64,000 nt of DNA from Candidatus Uhrbacteria bacterium. GTDB lineage: Bacteria; Patescibacteriota; Patescibacteriia; UBA9934. Below are positions 12,212 through 60,258 of this stretch, piece by piece; position 1 is the stretch's first letter, and every line of letters starts with the position of its first letter. Position numbers and translations under genes: made by a program. The notes under the pieces are model-generated. The model saw nothing but the letters and a program-made list of their open reading frames with translations. It was not told the DNA's origin and did not search any database. The stretch lies in assembly GCA_943359325.1 (NCBI GenBank), contig CALRHD010000004.1, positions 5,836 to 69,835 of the forward strand, given 5' to 3'.

Positions 12212-12288
12212 GCCCTGATAGCTCAGTTGGATAGAGCAGGGGACTTCTAAGCCCAAGGTCGATGGTTCGATCCCATCTCAGGGCACCA
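12212..12288 (+). tRNA. tRNA-Arg (anticodon UCU)
   Basis: Acceptor GCCCTGA/TCAGGGC, D-arm GCTCAGTTGGATAGAGC, anticodon loop CTTCTAA, T-arm GATGG-TTCGATC-CCATC, CCA encoded. The anticodon stem has only 3 G-C pairs flanked by mismatches. Confidence 0.65.
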
Positions 12289-13385: not shown

Positions 13386-13442
13386 ACGCGAACAGTATAC
13401 TCTTGATTTTACATCAGCTCACTATATGTTACAGTAACATAT

Positions 13443-28644: not shown

Positions 28645-28902
28645 CCTATCCACAGAATTTGTGGATAATGCTGTGGGCAACACCGTGTACAACTATGTGT
28701 GTTCGCCTGTGACAGAAAAGCACATAACGTGCGTCGCAAAACATCTCAAGAGTTATCCCTTCCCTCACCACCACATTCATCGCCGCTTACACACAGTCGC
28801 CTACGCCATTTTCAAAAAGCAGAGTAGGCCGGAATCCACTTATGAGACTTATCCCCCTCCTTACAAGTTACTGTTACTAAAAAGTTTTAAAATATCACTC
28901 AC
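28645..28902. other. putative oriC between dnaA and dnaN: DnaA boxes (TATCCACA at 28647, perfect reverse TGTGGATAA at 28660-28668, weaker boxes) plus an AT-rich stretch before dnaN
   Basis: Boxes and the AT-rich tract ttactgttactaaaaagttttaaaatatcac read directly. Position is conserved in many bacteria. Confidence 0.55.
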
Positions 28903-30039
28903 ATGAAATTTTCCTGTACGAGAGAGAACCTTTATCAGGGTCTCGCTATCACAAGTCACCTAGGAGCGAGGGCAGTAAACCTTCCCATTCTTAATAATGT
29001 TCTTTTAAAGGCAGATAACGTCGGACTTAAACTTACTGCAACAACAATAGACCTTACGGTTACCTGTCTTGTTCGCGGAAAAGTCGACCAGCAAGGGGAA
29101 TATACTGTTCCTGCGAAACTTTTTTATGATTACGTGAATCTTTTGCCGAGTGAGCGTGTGGACCTTGATTTGCTCGACAAGGCGATTTCCGTTGTGTGCA
29201 CAGGGTCGAAAACGAAAATCGTTGGTATGCCCGCTGCAGACTTTCCGTTTGTGCCGCAGGTGACGGGAGGAGCGATCTTTCACGTTCCTGTTGCGGCGTT
29301 CGATGTGGCGCTCTCACAGGTGTTATTTGCGATTGCGACAAACGAATCACGACCCGACATTACGGGCGTGTGCATGAAATTTTCGACAGAGGGTGGTATA
29401 CGGACGCTGACGCTTGCGGCGACAGATAGTTATAGGCTCGCAGAGCGTGTTGTGCCTGTTGCGGATGGCGCCGACGACACGCGGCAGATTATCATGCTCG
29501 GGAGAGCGCTCGCTGAGCTTCGTGTGATTTTCAGTGTCCTTCGTGACAGTGTCGACGCACCAGAAAACATAGAACTTGAAGTGACCGACAGTCAGGTTGC
29601 GTTCCGCTTTGGGAACGTTGAACTTATTTCCCGTACTATCGACGGAAAGTATCCTGACTACAAACAGATTATTCCAACAAAATCACAAACTGAGATTATT
29701 TTGTCGCGCCAAGCACTCGTGCAGGCGGTGAAACGGGCAAGCCTCTTCTCGAAAATTGGGCTTTTTGATGTTCGTCTCGAGATTCAGCCCGACGTAAGGG
29801 GTATTGTGCTTTCTGCAACCGATGCAGATAGAGGAGAAAACACCGTGACACTCGAAGGCGACGTGACCGGCCCTGTAAATGTCATGGTTTTGAACTATCG
29901 CTATCTCCTCGACGGCCTGAACGCCATTTCAACCGAAAAAGTTGCCGTTCGCATGGTCGACGGCTTCAGCCCGTGCGTTCTTGTCCCACAGGGCTCAACA
30001 GACGCCTACCTCTACATCATCATGCCGATTCGGCAGTAG
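28903..30039 (+). CDS. dnaN: DNA polymerase III beta sliding clamp
   Basis: 378 aa. Three-domain beta-clamp pattern (MKFSCTRENLYQGLAITSHLGARAVNLPILNNVLLKA...). Confidence 0.9.
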   Translation: MKFSCTRENLYQGLAITSHLGARAVNLPILNNVLLKADNVGLKLTATTIDLTVTCLVRGKVDQQGEYTVPAKLFYDYVNLLPSERVDLDLLDKAISVVCTGSKTKIVGMPAADFPFVPQVTGGAIFHVPVAAFDVALSQVLFAIATNESRPDITGVCMKFSTEGGIRTLTLAATDSYRLAERVVPVADGADDTRQIIMLGRALAELRVIFSVLRDSVDAPENIELEVTDSQVAFRFGNVELISRTIDGKYPDYKQIIPTKSQTEIILSRQALVQAVKRASLFSKIGLFDVRLEIQPDVRGIVLSATDADRGENTVTLEGDVTGPVNVMVLNYRYLLDGLNAISTEKVAVRMVDGFSPCVLVPQGSTDAYLYIIMPIRQ

Positions 30040-35262: not shown

Positions 35263-35682
35263 TTACGTCTCAAACAAAATCCGCATGACTTGCGGCAGCT
35301 CCATGGAGGCAAGATTTTTGGGGATAGTAGAAATAATATGCTTCACGACGTCGGTGTGAAGCGCATCGACAAGTTCGTTTTTGTTGGCTTCTGGAACGCA
35401 AAGAATGATGTCGACAAATTCATCTCGTGTGAGCTCTTGCAGTGCATTGGAAAGTGCATGGTATAGCTCGAGGCGGCGGTGTTGCTTTGCGGCGTCGAGG
35501 TCGGGCATTCCCGTGCCATTCGGTCGCGTTTCACGTTCGACGGGCTCTAATTCCGACGTTTCAATGACGCTATGCGCGATGATTTCGCGGTCATCAAGTG
35601 CAAAAAGTTTTGCGAGTTCGTTGTTCGTGAGAACGAGTAGCGTCTTTTGTGCAAAAGCAGGGTAGTGCTCCGAAATGTGCAT
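35263..35682 (-). CDS. hypothetical protein (about 139 aa)
   Basis: Only the C-terminal 139 codons (MHISEHYPAFAQKTLLVLTNNELAKLF...) look coding. The upstream part of the 267-aa ORF is Pro/Arg-rich antisense of the VIT gene. AAGGG immediately precedes the ATG. Confidence 0.5.
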   Translation of the reverse strand: MHISEHYPAFAQKTLLVLTNNELAKLFALDDREIIAHSVIETSELEPVERETRPNGTGMPDLDAAKQHRRLELYHALSNALQELTRDEFVDIILCVPEANKNELVDALHTDVVKHIISTIPKNLASMELPQVMRILFET

Positions 35683-35744
35683 ACCCTTATAGTATAAAGC
35701 CGAAAGCCGAAAGAGGAAAGCAAAACGTGATACAATGTGTGCGT

Positions 35745-38903: not shown

Positions 38904-40082
38904 ATGCGTTATCTCATTATCGGCGGAGGTATTGCAGGAACGACCGCAGCAGAGGAGCTGCGGAAGATTGACGCTGCTGCCGAGATTACGATTATTGATC
39001 ACGAGGATAACGTCTGCTATTCGCGCGTGCTGTTGCCGCACTATGTGAAAGGCGTCGTGCCGCGCGAGAAAGTTTTTTTGCGAAAGCCTGAGTGGTATGG
39101 TGCGCAACGGATCGAGGCGTTTTTCGGCACGATCGTCATGTCGATTGATACAAAAAATAAACATGTTGTCGTCGATAGTGGGCGCGAAATTCCCTACGAC
39201 GTGTTGCTGATTACAACAGGCGGCGAAGTAAACACCGCGCCAGAAGACATGCGCGGCGTTTCATATCTGCACACACTTGGTGACGCCGACCATTTCTTGG
39301 AACTTTTGCGTGAAGTGACACAACTTCCAAAAGAGGAGCAATGCGCGACGGTATTGGGTGGGGGATTTATCGCCCTTGAGTACATCAATATTTTTTCACA
39401 CTTCGGCATTCCGACGACGGTGATAAAACGGAGCAGCGGCTTTTGGTCACGGACGCTTTCGGAACACGCGCAAGCGGTGCTGGCGAATCATGCAACATCT
39501 CATGGCGTTACTTTGCTCACGAACGAGTTGAACCCGAAACTTGAGGGTAAAAAAACGCTCGAGTCGGTTGTAACGGCGAGTGGCAAGCGCATTCCCACAC
39601 GTATTCTTGGGGTCGGCATAGGCATTCACGCCGATACCGCGCTTTTTATTGACGCAGGAATTTTTTGTGGTGAGGGTATTCTCGCGTCCTCAACGCTCGA
39701 AACCAATGTGGATGGCGTGTATACTGCAGGAGACGTTGCAGAGCCGGAACACCCGCTCTATGGCCGTCCTGTGCAGATCGGCAATTGGCAAAGCGCGCAA
39801 ATGCAGGGCAGGGCAGTGGCGAAAACAATGTCAGGGGCTTCTACGGTGTTTGAGGCGGTGACGTCGTATGCGACAAATCTGCTTGGTATGCACGTCGTGT
39901 TTGTTGGCGACACGAGTAGGGCTCATGCCGAACGTGTGGAGTCACATAAGGCAACGCCAACGTCGTCGGTCGACCTCTTTTTCCGCGACAACCGCATTGT
40001 TGGCGCAACACTCGTTGGCGATGTGAGCGACCGTGCAGCAATTACGAAGGCGATTCAAGAGAAATATGCTCGACTCGCATAA
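38904..40082 (+). CDS. FAD-dependent pyridine-nucleotide-disulfide oxidoreductase (ferredoxin/rubredoxin-reductase-like)
   Basis: MRYLIIGGGIAGTTAAEELRK (FAD GxGxxG), second NAD(P) fold VLGGGFIALE, motif TAGDVA. Start at the internal ATG 8 nt after the ferredoxin stop. Confidence 0.8.
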   Translation: MRYLIIGGGIAGTTAAEELRKIDAAAEITIIDHEDNVCYSRVLLPHYVKGVVPREKVFLRKPEWYGAQRIEAFFGTIVMSIDTKNKHVVVDSGREIPYDVLLITTGGEVNTAPEDMRGVSYLHTLGDADHFLELLREVTQLPKEEQCATVLGGGFIALEYINIFSHFGIPTTVIKRSSGFWSRTLSEHAQAVLANHATSHGVTLLTNELNPKLEGKKTLESVVTASGKRIPTRILGVGIGIHADTALFIDAGIFCGEGILASSTLETNVDGVYTAGDVAEPEHPLYGRPVQIGNWQSAQMQGRAVAKTMSGASTVFEAVTSYATNLLGMHVVFVGDTSRAHAERVESHKATPTSSVDLFFRDNRIVGATLVGDVSDRAAITKAIQEKYARLA

Positions 40083-41115
40083 AACCTACGCGGCCTACGA
40101 CCCCGATGGGGTTGGTTTTCAGATTGAGCATTTGGCGGAGCAAGTGCGCATGGCGTGGCGGGATAGTCGTGGTGTTGCGTTGCCAAGCCGCTACAAGAAA
40201 GTGTCGCGTGTACTTGTTGTCGCGCTCGGAAGTTCGGCATTGAGTGCGGAGTTGCTTGCGTCGGCATTTACAAAAAAACTTTCAGTTCCTGTCGACATTC
40301 TTCGCAGCTATGCACTGCCGTTGTGGGTTGGAAAGGACACACTTATCGTGCTTTTGAGCTTTTCGGGTAGCACTGAAGAAGTTTTATCTGTGGCGCACGA
40401 GGCACGGCGACGTCGGTTGACTGTTGCAGTGTGTACGACAGGTGGTGCGCTTGCGGAAATTGCTGCGGACGCAAAATGGCCGATTATCCATTTTACGTCC
40501 AATGAATTTGCAGGTGAGGCGCGATATGGACAGGGGTTTTCGTCCATGAGTGTACTCGGCATTCTTCGCGCAGCAGGGTTATGCAGTGTTCAGGATGACG
40601 ACGTACGGCGAATGCGCCAAGCAATGGGCGATGTGCTCGATACGTGTGCCGTTGACGTACCAACGAAGGATAATCCTGCGAAAACTGTCGCCGAGGCGCT
40701 CGTTGGTCGCACCGTATTTGTCGTCGGTACAGAACATCTCACTGGCAATACGCGTATTTTCCAAGATCAGATTCACACGAGCGCGAAACAGTTTGCGTTT
40801 TCGCTTCCTGAGTTAAACAACCATTTTCTTGAAGCGTTTACGTTCCCAAAGAATTTTGTGAAAAATATTACGATCGTCATGTTGCGTTCTGCGCACTATG
40901 ATGCCCGTATCCAAAAGCGTTTCGACGTTATCGCGGAAGTATTCGAGACGATGGGCATGGAAGTTGTTGACTATGTCGCAGGAGGCAAAGACGCCATTGA
41001 AGAATGTGCGGAAGTGCTTCAGTTTAGCAGTTTTGTTTCGTACTATCTCGCGATGTGTAATAAAATAAATCCTCGCAATTTGCCTGTTGTCACCGCGTTC
41101 AAAAAACGTTTATAG
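40066..41115 (+). CDS. bifunctional phosphoglucose/phosphomannose isomerase (SIS domain)
   Basis: MLDSHKTYAAYDPDG...VVALGSSALSAELLAS...LLSFSGSTEEVL... is the archaeal-type PGI/PMI pattern. Overlaps the upstream gene by 17 nt. Confidence 0.7.
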   Translation: MLDSHKTYAAYDPDGVGFQIEHLAEQVRMAWRDSRGVALPSRYKKVSRVLVVALGSSALSAELLASAFTKKLSVPVDILRSYALPLWVGKDTLIVLLSFSGSTEEVLSVAHEARRRRLTVAVCTTGGALAEIAADAKWPIIHFTSNEFAGEARYGQGFSSMSVLGILRAAGLCSVQDDDVRRMRQAMGDVLDTCAVDVPTKDNPAKTVAEALVGRTVFVVGTEHLTGNTRIFQDQIHTSAKQFAFSLPELNNHFLEAFTFPKNFVKNITIVMLRSAHYDARIQKRFDVIAEVFETMGMEVVDYVAGGKDAIEECAEVLQFSSFVSYYLAMCNKINPRNLPVVTAFKKRL

Positions 41116-41273
41116 AGCCTGTTTATTATCTTTCTTCCGACTCCCTTTGGCGCTGTTTTGGCTGCAAAATTTTCAGATCTCCTCAACGTAGCTATGGCTA
41201 TGTTTCGTCGATCTTCAAATTTTTCGCTCAAAACATCATCCAAATGTCTCTGGAAGCAAGATTATAAATAGGC

Positions 41274-41319
41274 TCTAAAAGAAGAGGCGCGGCGACTGTA
41301 TTGCTACAGCCACCGCGCC
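41274..41319 (-). terminator. terminator of the 745-aa membrane-protein gene
   Basis: On the minus strand: GGCGCGGTGG-ctgtagcaatacag-TCGCCGCGCC followed by TCTTCTTTT. Confidence 0.5.
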
Positions 41320-41326
41320 ACGATTG

Positions 41327-43561
41327 TCACCCCTTGAACCACCAGCCGCACTCCGCCTTTTTCGTGGCGCACTGCTTGGCGATCTCGACGAACGGGTACT
41401 TGCCATCTTCTGCTGGCATCGTGAGGAGTTCACGGTGTTGTTCAACCTCTTTGCAGAGGTCGATTACATTGCCGTCTGACCTCGGGTCGCTGTACAGGAT
41501 TGGCCCGTATAACGCCTGAGTTTCTGCGAGCTTCCGTGTTGCCACGTTGCACGCGTCGCCGACAGGTTCCTTTTTCTCCGCCAATACAGAGACCGATCGG
41601 TCGCGCAAGGCTTCCCACCGTACCGTATTGTCGACGTAAGTGGCAAAACCACCAGCGGCAACGTTACACTCTGCTGTTTCCTCGTATCCACGACACACCT
41701 TGTACCACCCGTAGCCATTGTGCGCTACAGATACCACGAGACTGGATGCGTAGATCATTATGCCGATTACTCCGATGAGTGGCGCCAGCTTCTTCAGCAT
41801 GGAGACACGTTGTCCTGCGAGGGTCTTTTTCAAGTCCCCCGGAGCATCTTCGGAATCGCCCGCAAGCATACGACTTGCGAGAATCACTGCCAGCCCGAGA
41901 GCCAGCGAAGTGAGTGCCATGGTCGTGAGTGTCCAGAACTTTGGTGCGACCATCGTCAGGATCGCGTACAGAAACGGCGTTGCAAGCACGACGATCATGA
42001 GCGTCCCCGTGATTCGGTGCACACGCGTCGGTACTCCGACCGTTGCTGCATGTCCGACTGCCGCCAGACGGTTGTTGCCCCCTGCCAGACGGAGGAATAA
42101 CCCTGCAAAGTCGTCCGCAGGCCAGAGCAGATGCCCGGCGATGACGGTGACAACCACCGTTTCGACGAGCGTCAGCCACTGAAACTGCCACGCCATTGCC
42201 ACAAGACCGAAGACGAAGATGATCACAGGCAGCACCGAGGTGCTCCATGCAATCACTGCGACTCGTTTCACAATGTCGACGAGGTAACGCCGCCGCCATG
42301 CATCAAACTCCTTGGCGTTGTCGCCCTCGTCCTTGCCACTGGGTGGGGAAGGACGACTGCGTGCCACGTAGATGGCACTCGTGAGATAGGATGCTCCCAC
42401 GAAGAACCAAAACATGATGTTCGCGCCGAGGCCGCTCCATCGCATGAAGTACTCAGCCGGCGAAAGCGCTGCTTTGGACAGCACGCTCTCCGAGGTGAGC
42501 CAGACCCATCGTACTTGCGCCACGGCCAGCACCAAGAGCACAAGGCTCATGAAGCCGACGGGCACACTGTACGTTGCACGACCAGCAGCCAAGACGCTGG
42601 GGTAGACGACGTTCTCCACGTCATCAACTATGGTTTCGATGCCTCCTGGACTGAGAACCTTCTTCAAAGGTCCACGTAGCGCTTCTGGCACGCCCGCTCC
42701 ATTGAAGAAGGCGTCGAACCGATCGACGACTGCAACAGGGATCGATGAACCGTGGCGCCCGTAGTGATCGTTGATGAGGTCGCCGATGAGCGCAACGGTC
42801 TTCGGGTCCTTGAGGAAGTCGACTGGCGTCAGGTGAACAAGATCACCGAGGCGATCGAGTTCACCATTTCCCCAGAACGAGATGAGCTCGTTCATCGATT
42901 CGGCTGCGTTGTGCTGCACGGCTTCAACAGTCGCCTTGCGCAGCTCTGCGGCGATGCCGACAATTGCATACTTGTCGACGCCCGCCCGCTGTTCTTCATC
43001 TGCAAGTTCGGCAAGCCGCTTGTAGATGCTGCGTTGCGGTTTTGCGATGAGCGTGAGCGCATCGATAAATTCCGGTAGGTTCTTCACCGGCGGGGTTGTG
43101 CCGCCTCCGGTTTGGGTTGTGGTGTCCACATTGCCTCCTGAGAGAATGGTGGTGAGTGTTTGTTGGAATGTCGGCTTCATGCCGTCCTCCAGGTTCTTCT
43201 GGTTTGTTGCCGCATTTTGCAGCATCGTGCCAATTGTGATTCTTGCGGCGGGAAACGCCACAACCGCCGTGTTGCGGAGTGCACTGCCTTCGGGCAGCCA
43301 CCGAATTATTGCATCTTCGACAGCCTCGTGAAGTATGAATCGCACCGGAAACGGAACTGCCATATAGGCAGCCGCCGCGATCGCGACCAATTCTTCTGCA
43401 CCTCGGACGAACTCAGGCTTGTAGAAACGGTTCAGTGCCGATGTTGTTGCATCTTCAACAACCTTCGCTCTATTGATCGCTCCTGCAGCGCTGAAGGCCT
43501 TTAGGCCCATGTCTACTGCAAATTTTGTCAGTCGTTCGGCCGGGGTCATTTTTCCAGCCAT
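41327..43561 (-). CDS. large polytopic membrane protein: roughly 340-aa cytoplasmic N-domain, at least 7 TM helices, Cys-rich extracytoplasmic C-terminal domain; GC-rich; possibly T4SS-associated (VirB6/TrbL-like is speculative)
   Basis: 745 aa from ATG 43561 (MAGKMTPAERL...), with AGGAG 7 nt upstream. TM runs include LVLLVLAVAQVRWVWL, IMFWFFVGASYLTSAIYVA, VIIFVFGLVAMAWQF, LMIVVLATPFLYAILTMVA and LIGVIGIMIYASSLVVSVA. C-terminus has 6 Cys (CRGYEETAECN...CNVATRK...CKEV...CATKKAECGWWFKG). Confidence 0.65.
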   Translation of the reverse strand: MAGKMTPAERLTKFAVDMGLKAFSAAGAINRAKVVEDATTSALNRFYKPEFVRGAEELVAIAAAAYMAVPFPVRFILHEAVEDAIIRWLPEGSALRNTAVVAFPAARITIGTMLQNAATNQKNLEDGMKPTFQQTLTTILSGGNVDTTTQTGGGTTPPVKNLPEFIDALTLIAKPQRSIYKRLAELADEEQRAGVDKYAIVGIAAELRKATVEAVQHNAAESMNELISFWGNGELDRLGDLVHLTPVDFLKDPKTVALIGDLINDHYGRHGSSIPVAVVDRFDAFFNGAGVPEALRGPLKKVLSPGGIETIVDDVENVVYPSVLAAGRATYSVPVGFMSLVLLVLAVAQVRWVWLTSESVLSKAALSPAEYFMRWSGLGANIMFWFFVGASYLTSAIYVARSRPSPPSGKDEGDNAKEFDAWRRRYLVDIVKRVAVIAWSTSVLPVIIFVFGLVAMAWQFQWLTLVETVVVTVIAGHLLWPADDFAGLFLRLAGGNNRLAAVGHAATVGVPTRVHRITGTLMIVVLATPFLYAILTMVAPKFWTLTTMALTSLALGLAVILASRMLAGDSEDAPGDLKKTLAGQRVSMLKKLAPLIGVIGIMIYASSLVVSVAHNGYGWYKVCRGYEETAECNVAAGGFATYVDNTVRWEALRDRSVSVLAEKKEPVGDACNVATRKLAETQALYGPILYSDPRSDGNVIDLCKEVEQHRELLTMPAEDGKYPFVEIAKQCATKKAECGWWFKG

Positions 43562-43694
43562 GTTGGCTCCTGTTGTTTGTTTCAAGGGGTGAAAACAGCA
43601 TTCAGCATCGCTGCTGGCTGTCGTTGTGAGGGAACAGAGTCGCCCATGCATTTTACACCAAAAATGGTGAAAAATGTGCATAAAGTGACTGGCA

Positions 43695-43723
43695 AATATA
43701 GCAAAAAAGTGGCTTTTTGTCAA
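43695..43723 (-). promoter_or_regulatory. consensus promoter TTGACA-17-TATATT (minus strand) for the 745-aa membrane-protein gene
   Basis: Read on the reverse complement: ttgacaaaaagccacttttttgctatatt. Confidence 0.6.
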
Positions 43724-45270: not shown

Positions 45271-45657
45271 TTAGCCTGTTGACGTTGCCGTACCGAGCTG
45301 GTCGATAACGAACGACGAAATGGCGTAAGCCGAGAGCAAGATGATGAGACCAATGACCGAGTTGAGCAAAATGCCGCGTGCCTTTTTGACGTTGTCTTCG
45401 TTTCCTCCCGCAGTCATCCAGAGGAGTCCTGCGTAGATGATGAGAATGAGGAAGATAACACCGAGGAAGCCGAGCAGTACGCTAATGAGCGAACCGATCG
45501 TCGTTGTGAGACTTCCTGCGTCACCACCAAGACCGGCGGAGTCGTTGACTTCATCGAGCTGGCCTGAGAGGTCAACGGCGTGTGCACTTTGCAGTGCGAT
45601 GGGTGCGAGTGGCAAGGCAGCCATTGCTGCCGCCATGAGTGCGTGTTTGAGCTTCAT
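45271..45657 (-). CDS. TrbC/VirB2-like pilin family protein (paralog 6 of 6)
   Basis: Signal peptide ending AHA. Conserved core LISVLLGFLGVIFLILIIYAGLLWMTAGGNEDNVKKARGILLNSVIGLIILLSAYAISSFVI (two TM helices around the WMTAGGN motif). Confidence 0.7.
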   Translation of the reverse strand: MKLKHALMAAAMAALPLAPIALQSAHAVDLSGQLDEVNDSAGLGGDAGSLTTTIGSLISVLLGFLGVIFLILIIYAGLLWMTAGGNEDNVKKARGILLNSVIGLIILLSAYAISSFVIDQLGTATSTG

Positions 45658-45666
45658 AGCAAAAAA

Positions 45667-46041
45667 TTAATATGTGTTAGTACCTACATAGCGTATCACG
45701 GTTGCCGAAATCGCATAAGAGGATAACACGATTACGAGTCCAATAACCGCGTTGAGCAAAATGCCGCGTGCCTTTTTTACTTGATCGGCGTTCCCTGCAG
45801 CCGTCATCCACAAGAGTCCTGCGTAAATCGTAAGAAAGAGAAAAATAACACCAAGAAATCCGAGCAGTACGCTAATGAGTGTACCGATCATTGGCAGCAA
45901 TCCTTCAGACGAAAATGCGGCGTCTTGCGTTGCACCCGCAGCAACTGTTGCACTGTCGTAACTTATTGCATGCACCAAAAGAGGAGTTGCTGCAACGAAC
46001 AGACAGGCATATAACGTTGCGGTGAGAAGGGGGCGACGCAT
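45667..46041 (-). CDS. TrbC/VirB2-like pilin family protein (paralog 5)
   Basis: Internal ATG (MRRPLLTATLYACLFVAATPLLVHA) chosen to avoid overlap with the upstream paralog. Same conserved core LISVLLGFLGVIFLFLTIYAGLLWMTAAGNADQVKKARGILLNAVIGLVIVLSSYAISA. Confidence 0.7.
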   Translation of the reverse strand: MRRPLLTATLYACLFVAATPLLVHAISYDSATVAAGATQDAAFSSEGLLPMIGTLISVLLGFLGVIFLFLTIYAGLLWMTAAGNADQVKKARGILLNAVIGLVIVLSSYAISATVIRYVGTNTY

Positions 46042-46042
46042 A

Positions 46043-46435
46043 TTACGGTGATCCGTTAATATCTCCAACGGTGAGCGCATTGAAAATCGCCGCAGTGAGC
46101 GCGTACGCTGCAGTAACGATCACAAGACCAATTACAGAATTGACCATTATTTCTCGAGCTTTTTTGACCTGGTCGCTGTTACCTGCCGCAGTCATCCACA
46201 AGAGTCCGGCGTAGAGCATGAGGAGAAGGAATATGACGCCGATCAGCGCAAGAATGGGGGCAATGATGTATGTGCCGATAAAGACGGTAATGCCACCCGT
46301 CGCATTGTTTGTGTCGTAGTTTGCAACCTCTCCAGTGCTAATGAGCCCCGTGTCGCTGAGTGCGATTCTCGCTGAAGCAAGCGCCGGCAGAGAAAGCGTG
46401 AACACGAACAGAAGGGTGACGAGGAGTTTTCGCAT
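46043..46435 (-). CDS. TrbC/VirB2-like pilin family protein (paralog 4)
   Basis: Signal peptide MRKLLVTLLFVFTLSLPALASA. Core ILALIGVIFLLLMLYAGLLWMTAAGNSDQVKKAREIMVNSVIGLVIVTAAYA. Confidence 0.7.
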   Translation of the reverse strand: MRKLLVTLLFVFTLSLPALASARIALSDTGLISTGEVANYDTNNATGGITVFIGTYIIAPILALIGVIFLLLMLYAGLLWMTAAGNSDQVKKAREIMVNSVIGLVIVTAAYALTAAIFNALTVGDINGSP

Positions 46436-46436
46436 A

Positions 46437-46847
46437 CTAGCTTTGTGTCGACGTGATAATGGAGCTAATAACGAAGCTCGCGATGGCGTACGCCGAGAGA
46501 ATAATCGCCAAACCGATGATACCTGCGATAATGAGGTTCTTTGCTTCGGTGACTTTTTCGTCGTTGCCTCCTGCAGTCATCCATTTAAAACCGCCGAGAA
46601 GAATAATGACGACCGCAATAACGCCGAGGAATCCGAGGAGTACACGAATAAGTTGGCCGATGGTCGTTTTGATGTCTGCTTGGCCGAGGCCTGCAGTGTC
46701 GCCGAAGTCGGACGGCAAAATGTCTTCTGCTTCAAGCTGTTGTGCATGTGCAGGAACTGCCTGCATGAGCATTGCACCGCCAAACGGCAGGGCAAGGAGT
46801 GCCGCAACGCTTGCGCCGACCAAGAACCGTGTAAAGGTTTGTGTCAT
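46437..46847 (-). CDS. TrbC/VirB2-like pilin family protein (paralog 3)
   Basis: Signal peptide ending AHA. Core LIRVLLGFLGVIAVVIILLGGFKWMTAGGNDEKVTEAKNLIIAGIIGLAIILSAYAIASFVI. Confidence 0.7.
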   Translation of the reverse strand: MTQTFTRFLVGASVAALLALPFGGAMLMQAVPAHAQQLEAEDILPSDFGDTAGLGQADIKTTIGQLIRVLLGFLGVIAVVIILLGGFKWMTAGGNDEKVTEAKNLIIAGIIGLAIILSAYAIASFVISSIITSTQS

Positions 46848-46890
46848 ACGAAAAAAATAATGAATGGATGTATAAAGTATAGCACATTAA

Positions 46891-47268
46891 CTATAGAGCA
46901 GTCGCACTGCCTGTTGTAAGCGCGTTTATGAGTGCGCTGACAATTGCGTATGCAGCAAACACAACGACAAGTCCGAGTGTTGCCCACACAATAATTTCAC
47001 GACCTTTTTTAATGCGGTCGGGATTTCCGGCACTCGTGAGCCAAAACATGCCACCATAAATAAACATGACAAGTGCGAGCGAACCGATAATAGACAAAAA
47101 GCCTTTGATAACCGTACCGAGAATAATACGCACATCGGTTTCGCCGAGCGGATTGTAGAGTGTGACGTCGGCGGCGTGGACAGGGGAGGCGAAAAGAGAT
47201 CCTGCAAGGCCGGAAACGAGAAAAGAGAAAAGGAGAACGAGGAGTGATGCGGAGAGAAACTTTTTCAT
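46891..47268 (-). CDS. TrbC/VirB2-like pilin family protein (paralog 2, more divergent)
   Basis: Signal peptide MKKFLSASLLVLLFSFLVSGLAGSLFASPVHA. Core FLSIIGSLALVMFIYGGMFWLTSAGNPDRIKKGREIIVWATLGLVVVFAAYAIVSALI. Confidence 0.65.
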   Translation of the reverse strand: MKKFLSASLLVLLFSFLVSGLAGSLFASPVHAADVTLYNPLGETDVRIILGTVIKGFLSIIGSLALVMFIYGGMFWLTSAGNPDRIKKGREIIVWATLGLVVVFAAYAIVSALINALTTGSATAL

Positions 47269-47275
47269 ATCAAAA

Positions 47276-47797
47276 TTATTCTGTCTGTATAATGTCGCTC
47301 GCTTCGGTGCCGATGGTATCTTCTATATTTGTTGTTGCAGGTTCGCCAGTTTTGAGGATGGAAATGACGAGGTTAATGAATGCGTATGCACCAAAGACAA
47401 TGACGAGTCCGATTGCGGCGCCAGTGATAGCATCTTTGCCGCGTTGTACCCGTTCAGGGTAGCCAGCGGAAAGAATCCATTCAAACCCGCCGTATACAAA
47501 TGCGATCAACGCTGCGCTGCCCGAAAGTGCGAGAATAAGATAGCTAATGTTCACCGCTACCTGTAGCGCCTGTTCGACTGTGCACCTTCCTGAATCTTTG
47601 CATGCACAGTGGGCGGTGTCGGCGTCGGTTTCGAATGGCGCGGAACAGATGTTTGCGAAAATAATGCCGTCGCGGCGAATGTCGCTGTATTCGGTGCTGA
47701 TGGTGAGAGCGTGAGCAGAGAATGGAGAAACAAAAAAACCGACGGAGAGAACAAGCCCGAACATGATAGGCGCAAACAAGCGACGGATTGCGTGCAT
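47276..47797 (-). CDS. TrbC/VirB2-like pilin family protein (paralog 1, longest, with Cys-rich insert)
   Basis: Signal peptide ending SAHA. Insert ANICSAPFETDADTAHCACKDSGRCTV. Core LILALSGSAALIAFVYGGFEWILSAGYPERVQRGKDAITGAAIGLVIVFGAYAFINLVISIL. Confidence 0.65.
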   Translation of the reverse strand: MHAIRRLFAPIMFGLVLSVGFFVSPFSAHALTISTEYSDIRRDGIIFANICSAPFETDADTAHCACKDSGRCTVEQALQVAVNISYLILALSGSAALIAFVYGGFEWILSAGYPERVQRGKDAITGAAIGLVIVFGAYAFINLVISILKTGEPATTNIEDTIGTEASDIIQTE

Positions 47798-47839
47798 AAC
47801 TATAAAGAGTATAGCACATCTCTGCTCGCTTCACTGATC

Positions 47840-47970
47840 ACCGAAGTGTGGGGTAGTCCGCTCCTCGCTGCGACCCTCCGAGCCGCAGTCCCTGCAGCAG
47901 GGCCTCGGCGTTACTCGGCCATGGACTGACGGGTCGGGTCTCGCTCGATCGCGAACCACCCCACACTTTT
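47840..47970. repeat. structured GC-rich palindromic element, copy A (roughly 125 nt, closed by agtgtggggt/accccacact), immediately upstream of the pilin operon
   Basis: The core ccgagccgcagtccctgcagcagggcctcggcgttactcggccatggactgacgggtcg is about 80% identical to the reverse complement of 50330-50410. A -10-like TATACT (minus strand) sits about 12 nt upstream of the paralog-1 ATG. Confidence 0.55.
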
Positions 47971-48003
47971 GGTGAGCCTACTCGATACTCGGTTACTTGT
48001 TAC

Positions 48004-49389
48004 TTATTTGTACGTCTGCGCGACAATTCTCGCCGTTGTTTCAATGTCATTTGCAGGGTCTTCTGCACCGCCCAAAATAGTATCGATCAAACTCATCATC
48101 GCATTTTCCATCGCAGCGACGTCGTTTCCGTGGTACCACGTTCGTGCGGTCAAAAGTTGCTCGGCAAAAATGCCCGTGTCTTCGTTATCGAGCGTGTTGT
48201 TAATAAGGCCGCGAAGGGCGGGCGGCTTTCCTGCCTTATCCAAATATGTCTGCACATTTTCCTCTTTTGCTTGGTACTGTAAAAAGTCCCACGCCCAATC
48301 TGCAAATTCGGTGTCTTTTGAAACGCCCTCAACCCAATAATTGGCGATGTTCACCTCGCGGCCGCCGTCGATTTGCGGGAGTTTAGAAATGCCGAAGTTG
48401 AGTTTTGGTGACATGGTACGCAAAAGCGGAATGTCGTAGCTATAGCCGAAGAAAATTGCCGTTTGCCCGTTTGCAAATGCTTGGAGTGAGTTCGGGAACG
48501 AATCATTCCATGTGTAGACTTCTTTTGTGGGATTTGCGAAGTCAGTGAAGAAATTTACGGCGTCAAGACCAGGAAATATGTTGTCGGGCGTGCCGTCGGG
48601 AATGGTGTGGAACGCAACGCGGCCACGGCTGTCCGTCATGTTTGTGCCGTTTTGCATCATGAGGACAGAGAGAATGTCAGTGACACGTTCGACGTTGTCC
48701 GATGTGCCGATTGCGGCGCCCGACTGCGCAATATCGCCCTTGCTGTTGATGTCGGTGAGCTTTATGATGTCGGCCTGAAAGTCTTGCCATGTTGTGGGTG
48801 ACGTTGCTATGCCCGCAGCATTGAACAAATCTTTGTTGACGAACATCGCGAGCGTATCGACCGAAAGCGGAAGGCCGAAAATGCGTTGCTCGGCGTCTAC
48901 ACTCGGGTCGGGTTGATAGTCGCGAACGACGTCTTCAGCGACCACGTCAACAAAGTCATTCTTAAGCGTTTTTTGGCTCATGCCTGGAGTTTCTTTGTTG
49001 ACGATCACCGTTTGCTTGCGAATTGCGCCTTGCGTTTGAAGGAAGCTCACTGTTGTCGATGCGGGCATTGGCATGAGCAGGTTTTTGAATTGCTCGACTT
49101 CGTCGTTATGCACTGCAAAAATATCAGGACCTTCGCCTTCGGCTAATGCGCGCACCAATTCATCTTCGTATTCATCCCCGCGGAGTTTTTTGTAGTTTAT
49201 TTTGACGTTTGGGTGGAGCGCGGTGTAGCTCTTTATGACGTCGCGGAATGCGTCGTCGTTGTCAAAAACGCGCCAGTAAGAAAGCGTAACGTCTTCCAAA
49301 CTACTCTTGTCGGCGGCAGCACCGCAGCCCGACGTAATGAGCAGCGTTCCCAAAAGTGCAAGCGCGGTAAAACGGGCGGAGTAGGTCAT
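48004..49389 (-). CDS. ABC transporter extracellular solute-binding lipoprotein (carbohydrate type, family 1)
   Basis: Lipoprotein signal MTYSARFTALALLGTLLITSGC. 461 aa with a periplasmic-binding-protein fold pattern. Confidence 0.75.
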   Translation of the reverse strand: MTYSARFTALALLGTLLITSGCGAAADKSSLEDVTLSYWRVFDNDDAFRDVIKSYTALHPNVKINYKKLRGDEYEDELVRALAEGEGPDIFAVHNDEVEQFKNLLMPMPASTTVSFLQTQGAIRKQTVIVNKETPGMSQKTLKNDFVDVVAEDVVRDYQPDPSVDAEQRIFGLPLSVDTLAMFVNKDLFNAAGIATSPTTWQDFQADIIKLTDINSKGDIAQSGAAIGTSDNVERVTDILSVLMMQNGTNMTDSRGRVAFHTIPDGTPDNIFPGLDAVNFFTDFANPTKEVYTWNDSFPNSLQAFANGQTAIFFGYSYDIPLLRTMSPKLNFGISKLPQIDGGREVNIANYWVEGVSKDTEFADWAWDFLQYQAKEENVQTYLDKAGKPPALRGLINNTLDNEDTGIFAEQLLTARTWYHGNDVAAMENAMMSLIDTILGGAEDPANDIETTARIVAQTYK

Positions 49390-49394
49390 ACGGG

Positions 49395-50264
49395 TTATTT
49401 CAATGACTGCAAATAGTGCTGCAAATCGTTTTTGACTTCAGGGTGGGTGAGGCCGAGTTCGATCTGCGCGATGATAAATTGGACTTTATTGCCGCAATCG
49501 TAGCGGCGACCGTCGAACTTGCAGCCGTAGAGCGGCTTGCCGTTTTCGAGGTGCGTGGCGAATGCGTCGGCGAGGCGAATTTCTTCATCTTTTCCGGGTT
49601 GCTGTTCGGCGAGAATGCGCAAAATTTCTGGTGTAATGACGTAACGACCGACGACTGCGAGGTTCGACGGCGCGTCGTCAACAGCAGGTTTTTCTACGAA
49701 CTTTTTAATTTCCCATGTGTTTTTGCCCGTTTCAATGCCGCCAATGACGCCATAGCGCGATACTTCTGCGTGCGGTACTTCTTGGATGGCGATCACAGGG
49801 TCGCCGTACTTTTCGAATGTCTTGATAAGCTGGCCAATCGCAGGAACCTTTCCCGTAATAATATCGTCGCCAAAAAGAATTGCAACAGATTCGTCGGCAC
49901 CAATGAACGGTGCGGCGGCGAGCACGGCGTGGCCGTCTCCAAGCGGTTTTTGTTGGCGAACGAATGCAAATTTTGCGAGTTTTCCGACCTCGCGGATTGC
50001 CTCAAGCTCCTTCATTTTATTTTTTTGCTCAAGTCGGTACTCGAGCTCGAAGTTTCGGTCGAAATGGTCCTCAATGGCGCGTTTGCCCATTGCGGTAACG
50101 AAGATAATTTCTTCAATGCCTGCTGCAACAGCTTCCTCTACAATATATTGAATGACGGGTTTGTCGACGACGGGCAACATTTCTTTTGGTTGCGCTTTTG
50201 TGGCAGGGAGAAACCGCGTTCCCATGCCTGCGACGGGAATAATCGCTTTGCGAATTTTTATCAT
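49395..50264 (-). CDS. galU: UTP--glucose-1-phosphate uridylyltransferase
   Basis: MIKIRKAIIPVAGMGTRFLPATKAQPKEMLPVVDKPVIQYIVEEA is the classic GalU N-terminus. Start at the internal ATG at 50264. Confidence 0.9.
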   Translation of the reverse strand: MIKIRKAIIPVAGMGTRFLPATKAQPKEMLPVVDKPVIQYIVEEAVAAGIEEIIFVTAMGKRAIEDHFDRNFELEYRLEQKNKMKELEAIREVGKLAKFAFVRQQKPLGDGHAVLAAAPFIGADESVAILFGDDIITGKVPAIGQLIKTFEKYGDPVIAIQEVPHAEVSRYGVIGGIETGKNTWEIKKFVEKPAVDDAPSNLAVVGRYVITPEILRILAEQQPGKDEEIRLADAFATHLENGKPLYGCKFDGRRYDCGNKVQFIIAQIELGLTHPEVKNDLQHYLQSLK

Positions 50265-50286
50265 ACTTTTTTCAGTATAACGCAAA

Positions 50287-50447
50287 AACTGTACCCGCAC
50301 CATATGTCCTGCGACGTCGTTCGGCACCGCCCGTCGCGCTGAGCGCGACCCGTCAGTCCCTGGCCGGCGTAAGCCGAGGCCTTGCTGTACGGACTGCGGC
50401 TGCGGGGCTGAACAAGGAGCGGGATATGTGGTGCGGGTACAGTTTTA
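50287..50447. repeat. structured GC-rich palindromic element, copy B (roughly 160 nt, closed by a 19-bp inverted repeat aaaactgtacccgcaccatat/atatgtggtgcgggtacagtttt), immediately upstream of galU
   Basis: Core homologous to copy A in inverted orientation. A TATACT on the minus strand about 10 nt upstream of the galU ATG. Confidence 0.55.
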
Positions 50448-51314
50448 TTAAAAACTTCCGCTACTTCCACCACCACCAAAACTGCCTCCTCCAAAACCAC
50501 CAAAGCTGCTGCCTCCGCCCGATGAACCACCCCGACCGCCACCGAGCCACCAGAATCCGGGACTATTAAAATTTTTGCCATGTAAAAGTTTCGACAATAT
50601 AAAGTCGATGAGCAGGCCCGCAGCAACACCGATTCCGAGCCCCAAAAGTCCTGCAACAAGTACACCGACTCCTGCGCCGAGCACGCCGCCCAGCCACCAC
50701 GACTTTGTGCTGCCAAGCCAGCGGCCAATGAGAAAGAGAAAAATGAGTGCGAATGGGCCAAACGTATTGAGCAGCGCGGGGAGCACGTTGTTGCCTTTCT
50801 CTATTTGCGCAAATGTTTCGCCACGAGCAAGGCTGTTGAGCGCCACAACGCCGTTTAAGACCGCTGCGTCATAGTTGTTCGCGTGCAAAGATGGCGTCAT
50901 CACGTCGTCAATAATTCTCCATGCTTCGGCGTCGGGAATAACACCTTCCAATCCATACCCTACTTCAATACGCACCTTTCGTTCGGTTGGGGCAATGAGA
51001 AGCAAAACGCCGTTGTCGCTCCCTTGCTGGCCAATGCCCCAGCTTCGCGCAAGCGCAATCGCATAATCTTCAATGGCGTAGTCCTGCAAACTCGACACGG
51101 TCACAACCGCGATTTGCGTCGATGTTTCTTGGTTGAGGAGTGCAATTTCTTGCTGAATTGCCGATTCTGTTTCGGGTGACAAGACGTTTGCTTGGTCGAG
51201 AATGTAACTTTGCGGGGCAAGAGGCAGTGAAAGGGCTGCAAAACACAACTCCGCGTTCGCAAAAAAAGCAAACGCTGCGAGTGCTACGATGCCATTGCGT
51301 ACAAAATTACTCAT
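50448..51314 (-). CDS. TPM-domain (YgcG/TLP18.3-like) membrane protein with Gly/Ser-rich C-terminus
   Basis: Signal peptide. TPM domain pattern (VLSPETESAIQQEIALLNQETSTQIAVVTV...). TM segment. C-terminal GGGSSGGGSSFGGFGGGSFGGGGSS. Confidence 0.75.
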   Translation of the reverse strand: MSNFVRNGIVALAAFAFFANAELCFAALSLPLAPQSYILDQANVLSPETESAIQQEIALLNQETSTQIAVVTVSSLQDYAIEDYAIALARSWGIGQQGSDNGVLLLIAPTERKVRIEVGYGLEGVIPDAEAWRIIDDVMTPSLHANNYDAAVLNGVVALNSLARGETFAQIEKGNNVLPALLNTFGPFALIFLFLIGRWLGSTKSWWLGGVLGAGVGVLVAGLLGLGIGVAAGLLIDFILSKLLHGKNFNSPGFWWLGGGRGGSSGGGSSFGGFGGGSFGGGGSSGSF

Positions 51315-53216: not shown

Positions 53217-53306
53217 TGGCGGAGAGGGTGGGATTCGAACCCACGTTACCCTTTCGAGTAAACCACATTTCGAGTGTGGCGCGTTCGACCACTCTGCCAC
53301 CTCTCC
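53217..53306 (-). tRNA. tRNA-Ser (anticodon CGA), long variable arm
   Basis: GGAGAGG acceptor, D-arm GCAGAGTGGTCGAACGC, anticodon stem CCACA/TGTGG with loop CTCGAAA, variable arm TTTACTCGAAAGGGTAACG, T-arm GTGGG-TTCGAAT-CCCAC, discriminator G, CCA encoded. Confidence 0.85.
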
Positions 53307-53316
53307 GTATTTATTC

Positions 53317-53586
53317 TCATTTTTCTGTTCGGTTGCCATGAGCGATCGTATCCCTATATTGCTGGTTAAGCAATCTTCTCCCCTCCGTTGTTTTGAGAAA
53401 TTGCTCCCTTCTTATTGCGTCACTTTCACATTGATAGGCTTCGTAGCCTACGAGAACGGTGGGTCGATATGGTTTCGTTGATTGCACGAGTCCTCTGGAA
53501 TGTTCGTCGAGGCGACGTCGTAAATCTCTTGTCATTCCCTTGTAAAGATCCCCATTTTTCAGTTTGAGAATGTAGACGTACCACAT
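53317..53586 (-). CDS. GIY-YIG-domain nuclease family protein
   Basis: MWYVYILKLKNGDLYKGMTRDLRRRLDEHSRG carries the GIY...YIG/R/E signature. 89 aa. Confidence 0.75.
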   Translation of the reverse strand: MWYVYILKLKNGDLYKGMTRDLRRRLDEHSRGLVQSTKPYRPTVLVGYEAYQCESDAIRREQFLKTTEGRRLLNQQYRDTIAHGNRTEK

Positions 53587-53638: not shown

Positions 53639-53729
53639 CGAACCCACGTTACCCTTTCGAGTAAACCACATTTCGAGTGTGGCGCGTTCGACCCCTGCCT
53701 GCCGGCAGGCAGGACTCTGCCACCTCTCC
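53639..53729 (-). pseudogene. disrupted second copy of tRNA-Ser(CGA): 5-prime two-thirds identical to the intact gene, a 20-nt perfect palindrome (CCTGCCTGCCGGCAGGCAGG, 53694-53713) inserted in the D-loop, and 3-prime end truncated within the T-loop
   Basis: Identity to 53233-53290 read directly. Divergence begins after GTGGGTTCG. No acceptor 3-prime strand or CCA. Confidence 0.7.
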
Positions 53730-58411: not shown

Positions 58412-58449
58412 AAGAAGATTGTAGCGAGTATGCTATACTCTATCCATCT

Positions 58450-60258
58450 ATGCAATTTCGCCTTTTGCGACACGTTGCCCTGTGTTTTGTACTGCTTTTT
58501 GGCGTGCTCTTTGGTGCTTCTCGTGTCGACGCTGCGTCGCAATTGGCCGCATTGCGCGTCACTACAACAGGGAGTGGTGTACTTGTTCTGCAACCAGGAG
58601 AAGTAAAAGAGGTGACTGTGTCGTTTCAGAATATTGGGACGTCGACATGGAAAAATGATGGTGTGGGCTATATTTCTGTTTACACATACGGCCCGAAGTA
58701 TCGAAAGAGCAGTTTTGACCCCGGAACATGGCTTTCGCCGACACAGGTGAAGCGCATTCGCGAAGTGAGTGTTGTGCCAAGCGCAACGGCAACAATCGCG
58801 TTTCAGCTCCACGCTCCCACAACTGAAGGCACGTACACCGAAACATTTGCATTAGCTTCTGAAGGCATTGCGTGGGTCGACGGCGGTGAATTTTCGTTCG
58901 TGATTAACGTGAAGAAATCTGCCGCGGTAAATCCTGAGCCTGTCGAAGGGGTTGATGATAAAGGACTTTCTGCTGCGCTTGCCATGCAGTCGGCAAAGGC
59001 GATCAAGCTTGTTGCAGGCCGTTCGGCCATGGTGACGGCGGGGTTCACGAACACGGGAACAAAGGCGTGGAATAGTTTTGGCCTACGTACGCCAAGCGTG
59101 AATATGGCAACAACGACATCGGCGATCGAATTCGCACATTCCTCTTGGAGTGGATCGCAGCTCGCCTATAACGACGAAACAACAATTGCTCCAGGAAAAA
59201 CGGCGTATGTGACGTTTTCGATTACTGCACCAAAAATGAACGGAACGCATACTGCGCAATTTCAGTTTGCTGCGAATGACATTGCCATTGATGACGCATT
59301 TGTGGAGCTTCCTATTGAGGTAACGGGCGGTGCGGCGGAAGCAGTTTTTGCAGAAAGAATCGTTGACACGACGCATTTTATCGACGAACCGATTATCCGT
59401 GTTGGCGTCATTACTGTCGATGAAGAAACGCAAAATGAAGTTGTTATTACGTCGACAGAAAGCGATTTCGACCTCCGTGATGTGAACGGCAACCTGCTTG
59501 CCGAACTCACGAAGGGAAGTAGTGTCACGGCGTCCTTTGATGGCAGCAGATATGTGTACGACCGTGGTCGCGGCGCAGAATTTTCGTCGTATGCGCTTCG
59601 ATTTGTGCCAAAGGTCGACTATGCGGTCATGAAGATTGCGAATTTCGACCGCAGAGTGACGCGCGGTTCGGCAAACGCCGACAACACATTTCGTGGCGTG
59701 CTCGAATTCCGCTACAACGACACGCATGAACGAGCGTGGATTATCGATGAGCTGCCCATGGAGTATTACTTGCGCGGTTTAGCGGAGACGTCGAACATTT
59801 CGCACATGGAATTTCAGAAATCGTTGATGACGGCGGCACGGACGTATGCATTTTATCACTGGACGCGTGCAACGAAGCACGCAAAAGAGTTTTATCATGT
59901 CGACGCATATTTTGATCAAGTTTATAAGGGTTACGGGCAAGAAGAGCGCACGCCAAGGGTGACACAGGCCATTCAAGAAACGCGAGGGAAAGTGGTGACG
60001 TATGCGGGCGACATTGCCATTACGCCGTACTTTTCGCGCAGTGATGGCCAAACACGTAATTGGAGCGATGTGTGGGGTGGCGATATTCCATGGGCAATCG
60101 CAGTTGCGGTTCCATGCGACGACGGTAAAGTGTTGTGGGGTCACGGCGTGGGTATGTCGGCGTCGGGCGCACTTTGCATGGCAAATAACGGCATGTTGTG
60201 GGAGGAAATTGTGAAATATTTCTACACCGGCGTTGCAATTGAACAGCGATGGGAGTGA
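58450..60258 (+). CDS. SpoIID/LytB-domain protein with N-terminal Ig-like repeats
   Basis: Signal peptide. C-terminal SpoIID domain (EYYLRGLAETSNISHMEFQKSLMTAARTYAFYHW...YFSRSDGQTRNWSDVWGG). Confidence 0.8.
   Translation: MQFRLLRHVALCFVLLFGVLFGASRVDAASQLAALRVTTTGSGVLVLQPGEVKEVTVSFQNIGTSTWKNDGVGYISVYTYGPKYRKSSFDPGTWLSPTQVKRIREVSVVPSATATIAFQLHAPTTEGTYTETFALASEGIAWVDGGEFSFVINVKKSAAVNPEPVEGVDDKGLSAALAMQSAKAIKLVAGRSAMVTAGFTNTGTKAWNSFGLRTPSVNMATTTSAIEFAHSSWSGSQLAYNDETTIAPGKTAYVTFSITAPKMNGTHTAQFQFAANDIAIDDAFVELPIEVTGGAAEAVFAERIVDTTHFIDEPIIRVGVITVDEETQNEVVITSTESDFDLRDVNGNLLAELTKGSSVTASFDGSRYVYDRGRGAEFSSYALRFVPKVDYAVMKIANFDRRVTRGSANADNTFRGVLEFRYNDTHERAWIIDELPMEYYLRGLAETSNISHMEFQKSLMTAARTYAFYHWTRATKHAKEFYHVDAYFDQVYKGYGQEERTPRVTQAIQETRGKVVTYAGDIAITPYFSRSDGQTRNWSDVWGGDIPWAIAVAVPCDDGKVLWGHGVGMSASGALCMANNGMLWEEIVKYFYTGVAIEQRWE

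Follow-up and report, generated by a model that had tools for sequence, protein, structure and literature searches.

Inverted copies of a GC-rich palindromic element at terminator-like hairpins around a galU-like and a solute-binding protein gene in a Candidatus Uhrbacteria genome

Gene arrangement and promoters at the locus

The 64,000-nucleotide (nt) stretch of DNA analysed here, referred to as the window, belongs to contig CALRHD010000004.1 of a Candidatus Uhrbacteria bacterium and carries two long, GC-rich, imperfect palindromes, named copy A and copy B. Along the direction of transcription, the minus strand encodes LemA and a TPM-domain protein (50448-51314), followed by copy B, a GalU-like nucleotidyltransferase (NTP_transferase, 49395-50264), a solute-binding protein (SBP; SBP_bac_1, 48004-49389), copy A, and six T4SS_pilin paralogs, the first of which spans 47276-47797. 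The identities of the GalU-like, SBP, and pilin genes agree with those proposed in a first-pass annotation made from the letters alone, which had also pointed out the two palindromes; a repeat finder recovered both where they had been placed, as hairpins of 138 nt (copy A, 47838-47975) and 162 nt (copy B, 50285-50446) that can form on both strands. Copy A, in the predicted 3' untranslated region (UTR) of the SBP gene, starts 28 nt past the stop codon of this gene (48004) and precedes the pilin promoter. Only 1 nt separates copy B from the TPM stop codon (50448-50450), so that the 3' end of the TPM-domain gene adjoins it, and its other end lies 5 nt from the -10 box of galU; in the manner of a bidirectional terminator, it is framed by an A-run and a T-run.

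The hexamer TATACT stands close before the first start codon of each downstream operon, as had been proposed. On the minus strand, it is found at 47808-47813 for the pilin genes, preceded by TGC and with the ATG 10 nt downstream, and at 50274-50279 for galU, with the ATG 9 nt downstream. Both boxes are situated outside the neighbouring palindrome, each hairpin ending ahead of the -10 box of the next gene. TATACT occurs 24 times in the window against 8.5 expected, and it is followed by ATG after 7-12 nt (TATACT-N7-12-ATG) seven times against 0.8 expected; it is clearly the -10 box of this genome. The extended form TGnTATACT is present 7-12 nt before start codons, e.g., at 47795-47813, 50262-50279, 13383-13399, 35680-35696, and 58434-58452, and this layout of TGnTATACT near ATG is common to all six relatives described below. 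Such an arrangement implies that the galU and pilin promoters are ordinary extended -10 boxes and, with the transcription start predicted from the position of the box, that their mRNAs would be nearly leaderless, leaving no room for a leader.

Sequence and structure of the two palindromes

The two copies share a core, which spans 47858-47957 on the plus strand in copy A and 50314-50425 on the minus strand in copy B, as determined by alignments, BLAST, and a covariance model (R1) built from the cores of copies A and B. Comparing copy A (plus) with copy B (minus), BLAST aligned 93 nt at 79.6% identity (E ~1e-13), in line with the likeness of about 80% noted in the first-pass annotation. The best-conserved part is an apical block of 56 nt, in which the repeat finder matched 47881-47936 to 50346-50401 in reverse orientation at 84% identity. 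The longest identical block between the copies is 14 base pairs (bp), and several indels separate them. A 36-column pattern of the core occurred exactly twice in the window, with 0.00 occurrences expected from shuffles, and model R1 scored copy A at 116 bits and copy B at 153 bits. Copy B additionally contains a 17-nt side hairpin, GTCGCGCTGAGCGCGAC, within its core. The copies are inverted with respect to one another, and both adjoining operons are encoded on the minus strand. In a separate observation, dnaA and dnaN are adjacent at 27259-30039, and the window thus probably covers the replication origin region; if the origin region is located there, copies A and B are on the same replichore in opposite orientation.

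Each core is enclosed by paired basal arms. In copy A, the left arm (47844-47861) pairs with the right arm (47951-47968) over 18 nt at 89% complementarity according to the repeat finder; the arms contain AGTGTGGGGT/ACCCCACACT, the terminal inverted repeat proposed earlier, and hold 11 perfect bp, AAGTGTGGGGT/ACCCCACACTT. The outer part of the left arm (~47844-47857) has no counterpart in copy B, and its inner end enters the shared core. In copy B, the left arm (50285-50312), 28 nt long and mostly locus-specific, pairs with the right arm (50419-50446) at 89% complementarity, and the outer 18 bp pair perfectly, close to the 19 bp previously suggested. The arms of A and B show no significant likeness; of 500 shuffles each, 65 (5' arms) and 16 (3' arms) reached the score of the observed alignment. 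Homology is limited to the core; the basal arms pair in both copies, although their sequences are unrelated.

All four strands (A and B, plus and minus) fold strongly, with z-scores of -4.7 to -7.0 and none of 200 dinucleotide shuffles folding as well, and the orientation is thus irrelevant to the formation of a hairpin. The copy A hairpin comprises 52 pairs, with a folding energy of -72.9 kcal/mol for the plus strand and -80.2 kcal/mol for the minus strand, and the copy B hairpin comprises 62-63 pairs, with -105.9 kcal/mol (plus) and -91.0 kcal/mol (minus). The stronger-folding element strand is the same in both copies (A minus, B plus), by 7 and 15 kcal/mol, respectively, and G-U counts of 6 and 4 on the two strands single out neither. 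Beneath the apex, within the 56-nt apical block, a 9-bp helix, CCGCAGTCC/GGACTG(A)CGG, falls in identical alignment columns in the minimum-energy folds of A and B. These nine pairs are the only ones in shared columns and all are invariant, in a covariation analysis of two sequences only. Outside this helix, homologous 5' segments take different partners in A and B, and the apical hairpins differ without compensation, as a GNRA-capped hairpin of copy B and a CUG hairpin of copy A are each lost in the other copy. The feature that is kept is a very long hairpin, not one specific fold.

Orthologous junctions in syntenic relatives

Six syntenic relatives (L011, L013, L015, L023, L025, and L027), with SBPs 64-70% identical to that of the window, were compared. 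The source of the window is an uncultured member of the Patescibacteria, and those homologues of its SBP and YchF that bear a name are assigned to Candidatus Uhrbacteria or to the Patescibacteria group. All six keep the galU-SBP-pilin order and orientation, and all lack the repeats; the order is consequently ancestral. The pilin array itself, consisting of six tandem T4SS_pilin paralogs (PF18895, TrbC/VirB2-like) at 45271-47797 in the window, is kept in number and order downstream of galU-SBP in the six relatives.

The SBP-to-pilin spacer follows one plan in all six relatives: past the stop codon come a single simple hairpin, rich in GC, and a T-rich tail, and then TGnTATACT with the ATG 9-10 nt beyond it. 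The stems of these hairpins are mostly 8-13 bp, and the same plan is seen upstream of galU in those relatives that have a gene end there. Neither BLAST nor covariance model R1 found the core in the SBP-to-pilin spacers of the six relatives. These spacers measure 58, 77, 79, 85, 120, and 126 nt, compared to 206 nt in the window, and subtracting the ~130 nt of copy A from the latter leaves ~76 nt, the size seen in the relatives. Moreover, the arms of copy A resemble the terminator stems of the relatives in size and in the style of their G-runs. The promoter, which the element does not include, is ancestral. As the relatives keep it with only a simple hairpin before it, the core appears to be an addition at a site that normally holds a terminator-like hairpin. 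In L025 (5968-6095), the SBP-to-pilin spacer contains a purine-/pyrimidine-rich hairpin of ~95 nt, unrelated in sequence to A and B, which indicates that the junction hairpin has repeatedly changed size in this lineage.

A proposed lineage-specific palindromic repeat

Taken together, we read copies A and B as diverged copies of a lineage-specific, GC-rich palindromic repeat of ~100 nt nested in terminator hairpins, similar in kind to repetitive extragenic palindromic (REP) sequences, enterobacterial repetitive intergenic consensus (ERIC) sequences, and miniature inverted-repeat transposable elements (MITEs), and we put the probability of this reading at roughly one in two. Most likely, a palindromic, non-autonomous core was added to a terminator hairpin already present at each site, either by copying into its loop or onto it by a conversion-like event. 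Insertion into a hairpin would leave locus-specific inverted arms around the core and no direct target duplications. Since both copies lie past a minus-strand stop codon and before the next -10 box, they would form the transcribed 3' UTR of the gene upstream of them, the TPM-domain gene in the case of copy B and the SBP gene in that of copy A. A palindromic unit would give a 50-60-bp hairpin in either orientation, keeping and lengthening the structure at the end of the upstream transcript, and would insulate this transcript from the next promoter. Such a hairpin could act as a transcription stop, a barrier to 3' exonucleases, or a target of RNase III, all roles that have been proposed for REP, ERIC, and Correia elements. 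For REP-type elements, roles within the 3' UTR have also been discussed (bioRxiv 10.64898/2026.03.23.713779). In copy B, a T-run, TTTTTGCGTT, follows the hairpin on the sense strand, and a T-run is present on both strands. A consensus scan for intrinsic terminators listed neither copy, the stems and loops of both exceeding the limits of the scan.

A more specific version seems unlikely to us, namely that the core is a mobile, non-autonomous palindrome of a new type in Patescibacteria that inserts specifically into the loops of terminator hairpins, gaining locus-specific inverted arms in place of conserved termini and direct target duplications and preserving the host terminator, and that an unrelated 171-nt hairpin at 41110-41280 represents a second such family.

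Several observations weigh against a dispersed repeat. The genome was covered over 86 kb, comprising the window and 22 kb of extra flank, and the window itself is contained in ENA metagenome contigs of 73 kb and 95 kb; within these 86 kb, just two copies are present, 2.3 kb apart. With filters off, R1 found no third copy in the window, where the next-best score was 10.3 bits, and no copy in the 22 kb of extra flank. Nor did it find one in ~100 kb from the six relatives, in which the best score, ~17 bits, fell within coding DNA. Exact-pattern scans of genome, metagenome, and viral collections gave chance matches only. Among GTDB representative genomes, the pattern GGCCANGGACTGACGGGTCG had eight matches in high-GC organisms, each of just 20-24 nt; in JGI metagenomes, CCGCAGTCCNNNCAGCANGGCCTCGG had two matches in high-GC coding DNA, with no match to the model; and in IMG/VR viral contigs, two patterns gave zero matches and one chance match. 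BLASTN against phages and plasmids returned nothing past chance matches of 31-42 nt, and Rfam, applied to the whole window at gathering scores and to 47700-50600 at E<=10, returned only tRNAs and two noise matches. Six-frame translations of both elements were compared with 5.8 billion proteins in order to find spurious open reading frames (ORFs) called over other copies, and none matched at E<=10. The repeat family is undetected outside this genome by every search route tried.

The same holds for signs of mobility. No transposase, RAYT, or TnpB is among the annotated or scanned genes of the 86 kb, apart from a few small unscanned ORFs of the window, and no reverse transcriptase or integron integrase is among the genes checked there. 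The sole tyrosine recombinase in the window is encoded at 12468-13385, 35 kb from the elements. Inspection by eye of the hairpin ends and of the core boundaries, which are known within ~5 nt, revealed no target-site duplication. Furthermore, copies A and B are only ~80% identical and are therefore not recent copies of each other, and the sense strand of copy A has no U-tract (CACUUCGGUG, CTTCGGTG), so that this copy is not a canonical intrinsic terminator and read-through into the pilin genes is possible. Dispersal and mobility of the repeat are not demonstrated.

Contig breaks within the elements

No copy beyond the two was found in the 86 kb or in the ~100 kb of the relatives, but assembly data give an indirect hint of more. 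Logan contigs, which are k=31 assemblies from two samples and 100% identical to the window, stop inside both elements. Two of them (L029 and L030) end at 50390 in copy B, L010 covers 47932-50353, and L032 starts at 47924 in copy A, leaving uncovered gaps of 36 nt in copy B and 7 nt in copy A. Because flank unitigs enter a repeat by k-1 = 30 nt, these gaps are of the size expected if segments of 96 nt (50324-50419) and 67 nt (47895-47961) recurred identically elsewhere in the sample. In copy B, the repeat thus predicted would end on the right at 50419, where the locus-specific arm begins. That the contigs from two samples stop at identical bases hints at further copies elsewhere. Other Logan contigs end in a tRNA-Leu, in a repeated tRNA-Ser fragment, and in the third palindrome at 41110-41280, and one further contig ends in an unremarkable spacer. 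Counting against the hint, one contig ends in a perfect 39-nt palindrome, which alone breaks a k=31 graph, showing that hairpins as such can break these assemblies.

Alternative explanations

The two hairpins may instead have been lengthened in place, with the apex of one copied to the other by ectopic conversion or template switching, so that neither a mobile element nor a family beyond the two copies would be involved. This is possible, if doubtful. The presence of two copies only, separated by 2.3 kb, fits such local elaboration, as does the wide variation in the size of the junction hairpin among the relatives, exemplified by the ~95-nt hairpin of L025. The third, unrelated hairpin of 171 nt at 41110-41280 likewise suggests that the genome tolerates or generates long hairpins. 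However, 80% identity together with several indels speaks against a recent conversion between A and B, and extra copies are suggested by the contigs of two samples ending at the very same bases.

Alternatively, A and B could be two paralogous genes for small structured RNAs, having a conserved apical domain and a closing stem of free sequence and transcribed from the minus strand of A and the plus strand of B, with copy B possessing its own promoter and T-run. The apex is indeed conserved and the closing stems variable, the stronger fold belongs to the same element strand in A and B, and the plus strand of B has a TATAAC hexamer (50276-50281) as well as TTTTATT past the hairpin. Yet TATAAC is the reverse side of the TATACT box of galU and lacks the TGn of the promoters of this genome, the differences in the apex are not compensatory, the nine pairs in shared columns do not vary, and the G-U counts (6 and 4) favour neither strand. 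As the element is also absent from all six relatives and has no match in Rfam, we regard RNA genes as improbable.

It had further been suggested that the copies might mediate inversion or excision of the 2.4-kb galU-SBP segment. The inverted copies do bracket this segment, and Logan contig L010 runs exactly from core to core. Nevertheless, six repeat-less relatives share the galU-SBP-pilin order and orientation, which are hence ancestral, identity is 84% with no identical block above 14 bp, no recombinase gene is adjacent, the only tyrosine recombinase (12468-13385) being 35 kb away, the contig break points differ from the limits of A/B identity, and a single orientation was seen in the contigs read. 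No evidence thus speaks for a site-specific invertible segment, which we consider highly improbable.

Finally, the proposal that each copy is a shared 5' leader, a riboswitch, or a MITE delivering a promoter, prompted by the location of each copy immediately before an operon that has a TATACT box, is already contradicted and can scarcely be credited: the copies are oppositely oriented beside co-directional operons, which rules out a strand-specific leader RNA or an element-borne promoter, since one TATACT box cannot belong to both of two inverted elements; the -10 box lies outside and downstream of both hairpins, 9-10 nt from the ATG; relatives without the element have the same TGnTATACT and ATG; the terminal arms are not conserved; and Rfam gave no match.

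Relation to known palindromic repeats and other structured elements

Proteobacteria and firmicutes are well known to carry small palindromic repeats between their genes. For Patescibacteria (candidate phyla radiation, CPR), a literature search for palindromic repeats or MITEs found none described in these reduced genomes.

ERIC sequences, also named intergenic repeat units (IRU), are imperfect palindromes of ~127 nt that are numerous in enterobacteria and follow a consensus over their whole length, including the ends. Copies A and B resemble them in size, in forming a single long imperfect hairpin, in their intergenic and transcribed position, in occurring in either orientation, and in providing a hairpin to the 3' UTR. 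In contrast to ERIC, only the central 56-100 nt are shared here, the ends are locus-specific, and two copies are known, a distinction made from descriptions of ERIC.

MITEs, such as the Correia elements of Neisseria and RUP, have conserved termini flanked by target-site duplications. Like these, copies A and B are small, non-coding, palindromic, and intergenic beside promoters or terminators, and their hairpin transcripts are of a kind that RNase III could cut. In contrast, the terminal inverted repeats are not conserved between A and B, which does not fit the definition of a MITE; target-site duplications are not visible by eye and the promoter is not borne by the element.

Intrinsic (Rho-independent) terminators share with A and B the position past a stop codon and before the next promoter and, in copy B, the T-run. 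They differ in having stems of 5-15 bp, compared to 50-60 bp here, and in that copy A has no U-tract and a homologous core is present in both copies.

REP sequences, bacterial interspersed mosaic elements (BIMEs), and REPINs are GC-rich extragenic palindromes past stop codons that can lie in inverted orientation and form long hairpins. A REPIN consists of two inverted REPs and a spacer and is mobilised by a RAYT, a Y1 transposase (PMC3116915, PMC3337134). A and B are extragenic, located past stop codons in either orientation, and hairpin-forming, as REPs are, and they are similar to REPINs in size and shape. Unlike REPINs, whose ends are conserved and whose middle is free, the reverse is seen here, no 5' GTAG head is shared, as GTAG is present only in copy A (47853-47856), and no RAYT was found in the 86 kb. 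The first-pass suggestion of a REP/BIME-type repeat therefore stands as to kind, i.e., an intergenic palindromic repeat, but not as membership in REP/BIME or REPIN, given that the ends are not conserved.

Insertion sequences (IS) that target palindromes offer a further parallel, as IS1397/ISKpn1 and ISPpu9 insert into REPs (PMC8450116). Their insertion into an existing hairpin likewise leaves locus-specific inverted arms around the insert. In these cases, however, the insert is a full IS with a transposase, while here it is a non-coding sequence of ~100 nt for which no parent element is known.

Other classes of structured DNA were considered and rejected. Core sites of integron attC (RYYYAAC/GTTRRRY) were not seen by eye in either hairpin, and no integron integrase is among the called genes. 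Differences between A and B are not adenine-specific, as opposed to the template and variable repeats (TR/VR) of diversity-generating retroelements (DGRs), and the called genes include no reverse transcriptase, which also excludes the msr/msd of a retron. Single-strand origins (sso) of rolling-circle replication (RCR) plasmids, origins of transfer (oriT), and TIGR arrays each lacked their defining sequence features or partner gene.

Copies A and B are best described as a new lineage-specific intergenic palindromic repeat of a known broad class, with the odd trait of a conserved centre between free ends; the feature is real, and its explanation is of an ordinary kind. If the repeat spreads via the loops of terminators, it would be a selfish element whose design makes it nearly harmless, as well as a practical nuisance that breaks short-read assemblies of these genomes. 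For annotation, the outcome is negative, in that no shared riboswitch controls galU-SBP and the pilin array.

Other palindromes and repeats in the region

The third palindrome, at 41110-41280, is AT-rich and 171 nt long, with 29-nt arms at 86%, and folds into a single long hairpin (about -62 to -66 kcal/mol). It is located between two convergent genes, a PGI-like gene (40033-41115, plus strand) and an ORF of 798 amino acids (41327-43723, minus strand), and is followed by a GC hairpin at ~41287-41320. A Logan contig ends within it at ~41221. The palindrome is unrelated to A and B and is present as a single copy in all sequence examined. Approximately 12.7 kb to the left of the window, the perfect 39-nt palindrome in which another Logan contig ends is intergenic and reads ATATCAACACTCGGCACTG-T-CAGTGCCGAGTGTTGATAT (L033, 13004-13042).

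The 3' part of a tRNA-Ser gene (53217-53306), 53261-53298, is repeated at ~53664-53700 with 95% identity over 38 nt, and a Logan contig ends in this repeat at 53664. The two repeats bracket a small GIY-YIG ORF (53317-53586), and several small ORFs lacking annotation are found next to it, along with a Fic gene and a DnaA_C-like gene; the repeat pair is possibly an att-like trace of an element that was once integrated. A tRNA-Arg gene (12212-12288) is embedded in a 22-nt inverted repeat at 91% (12197-12218/12278-12299) that reaches past the acceptor stem.

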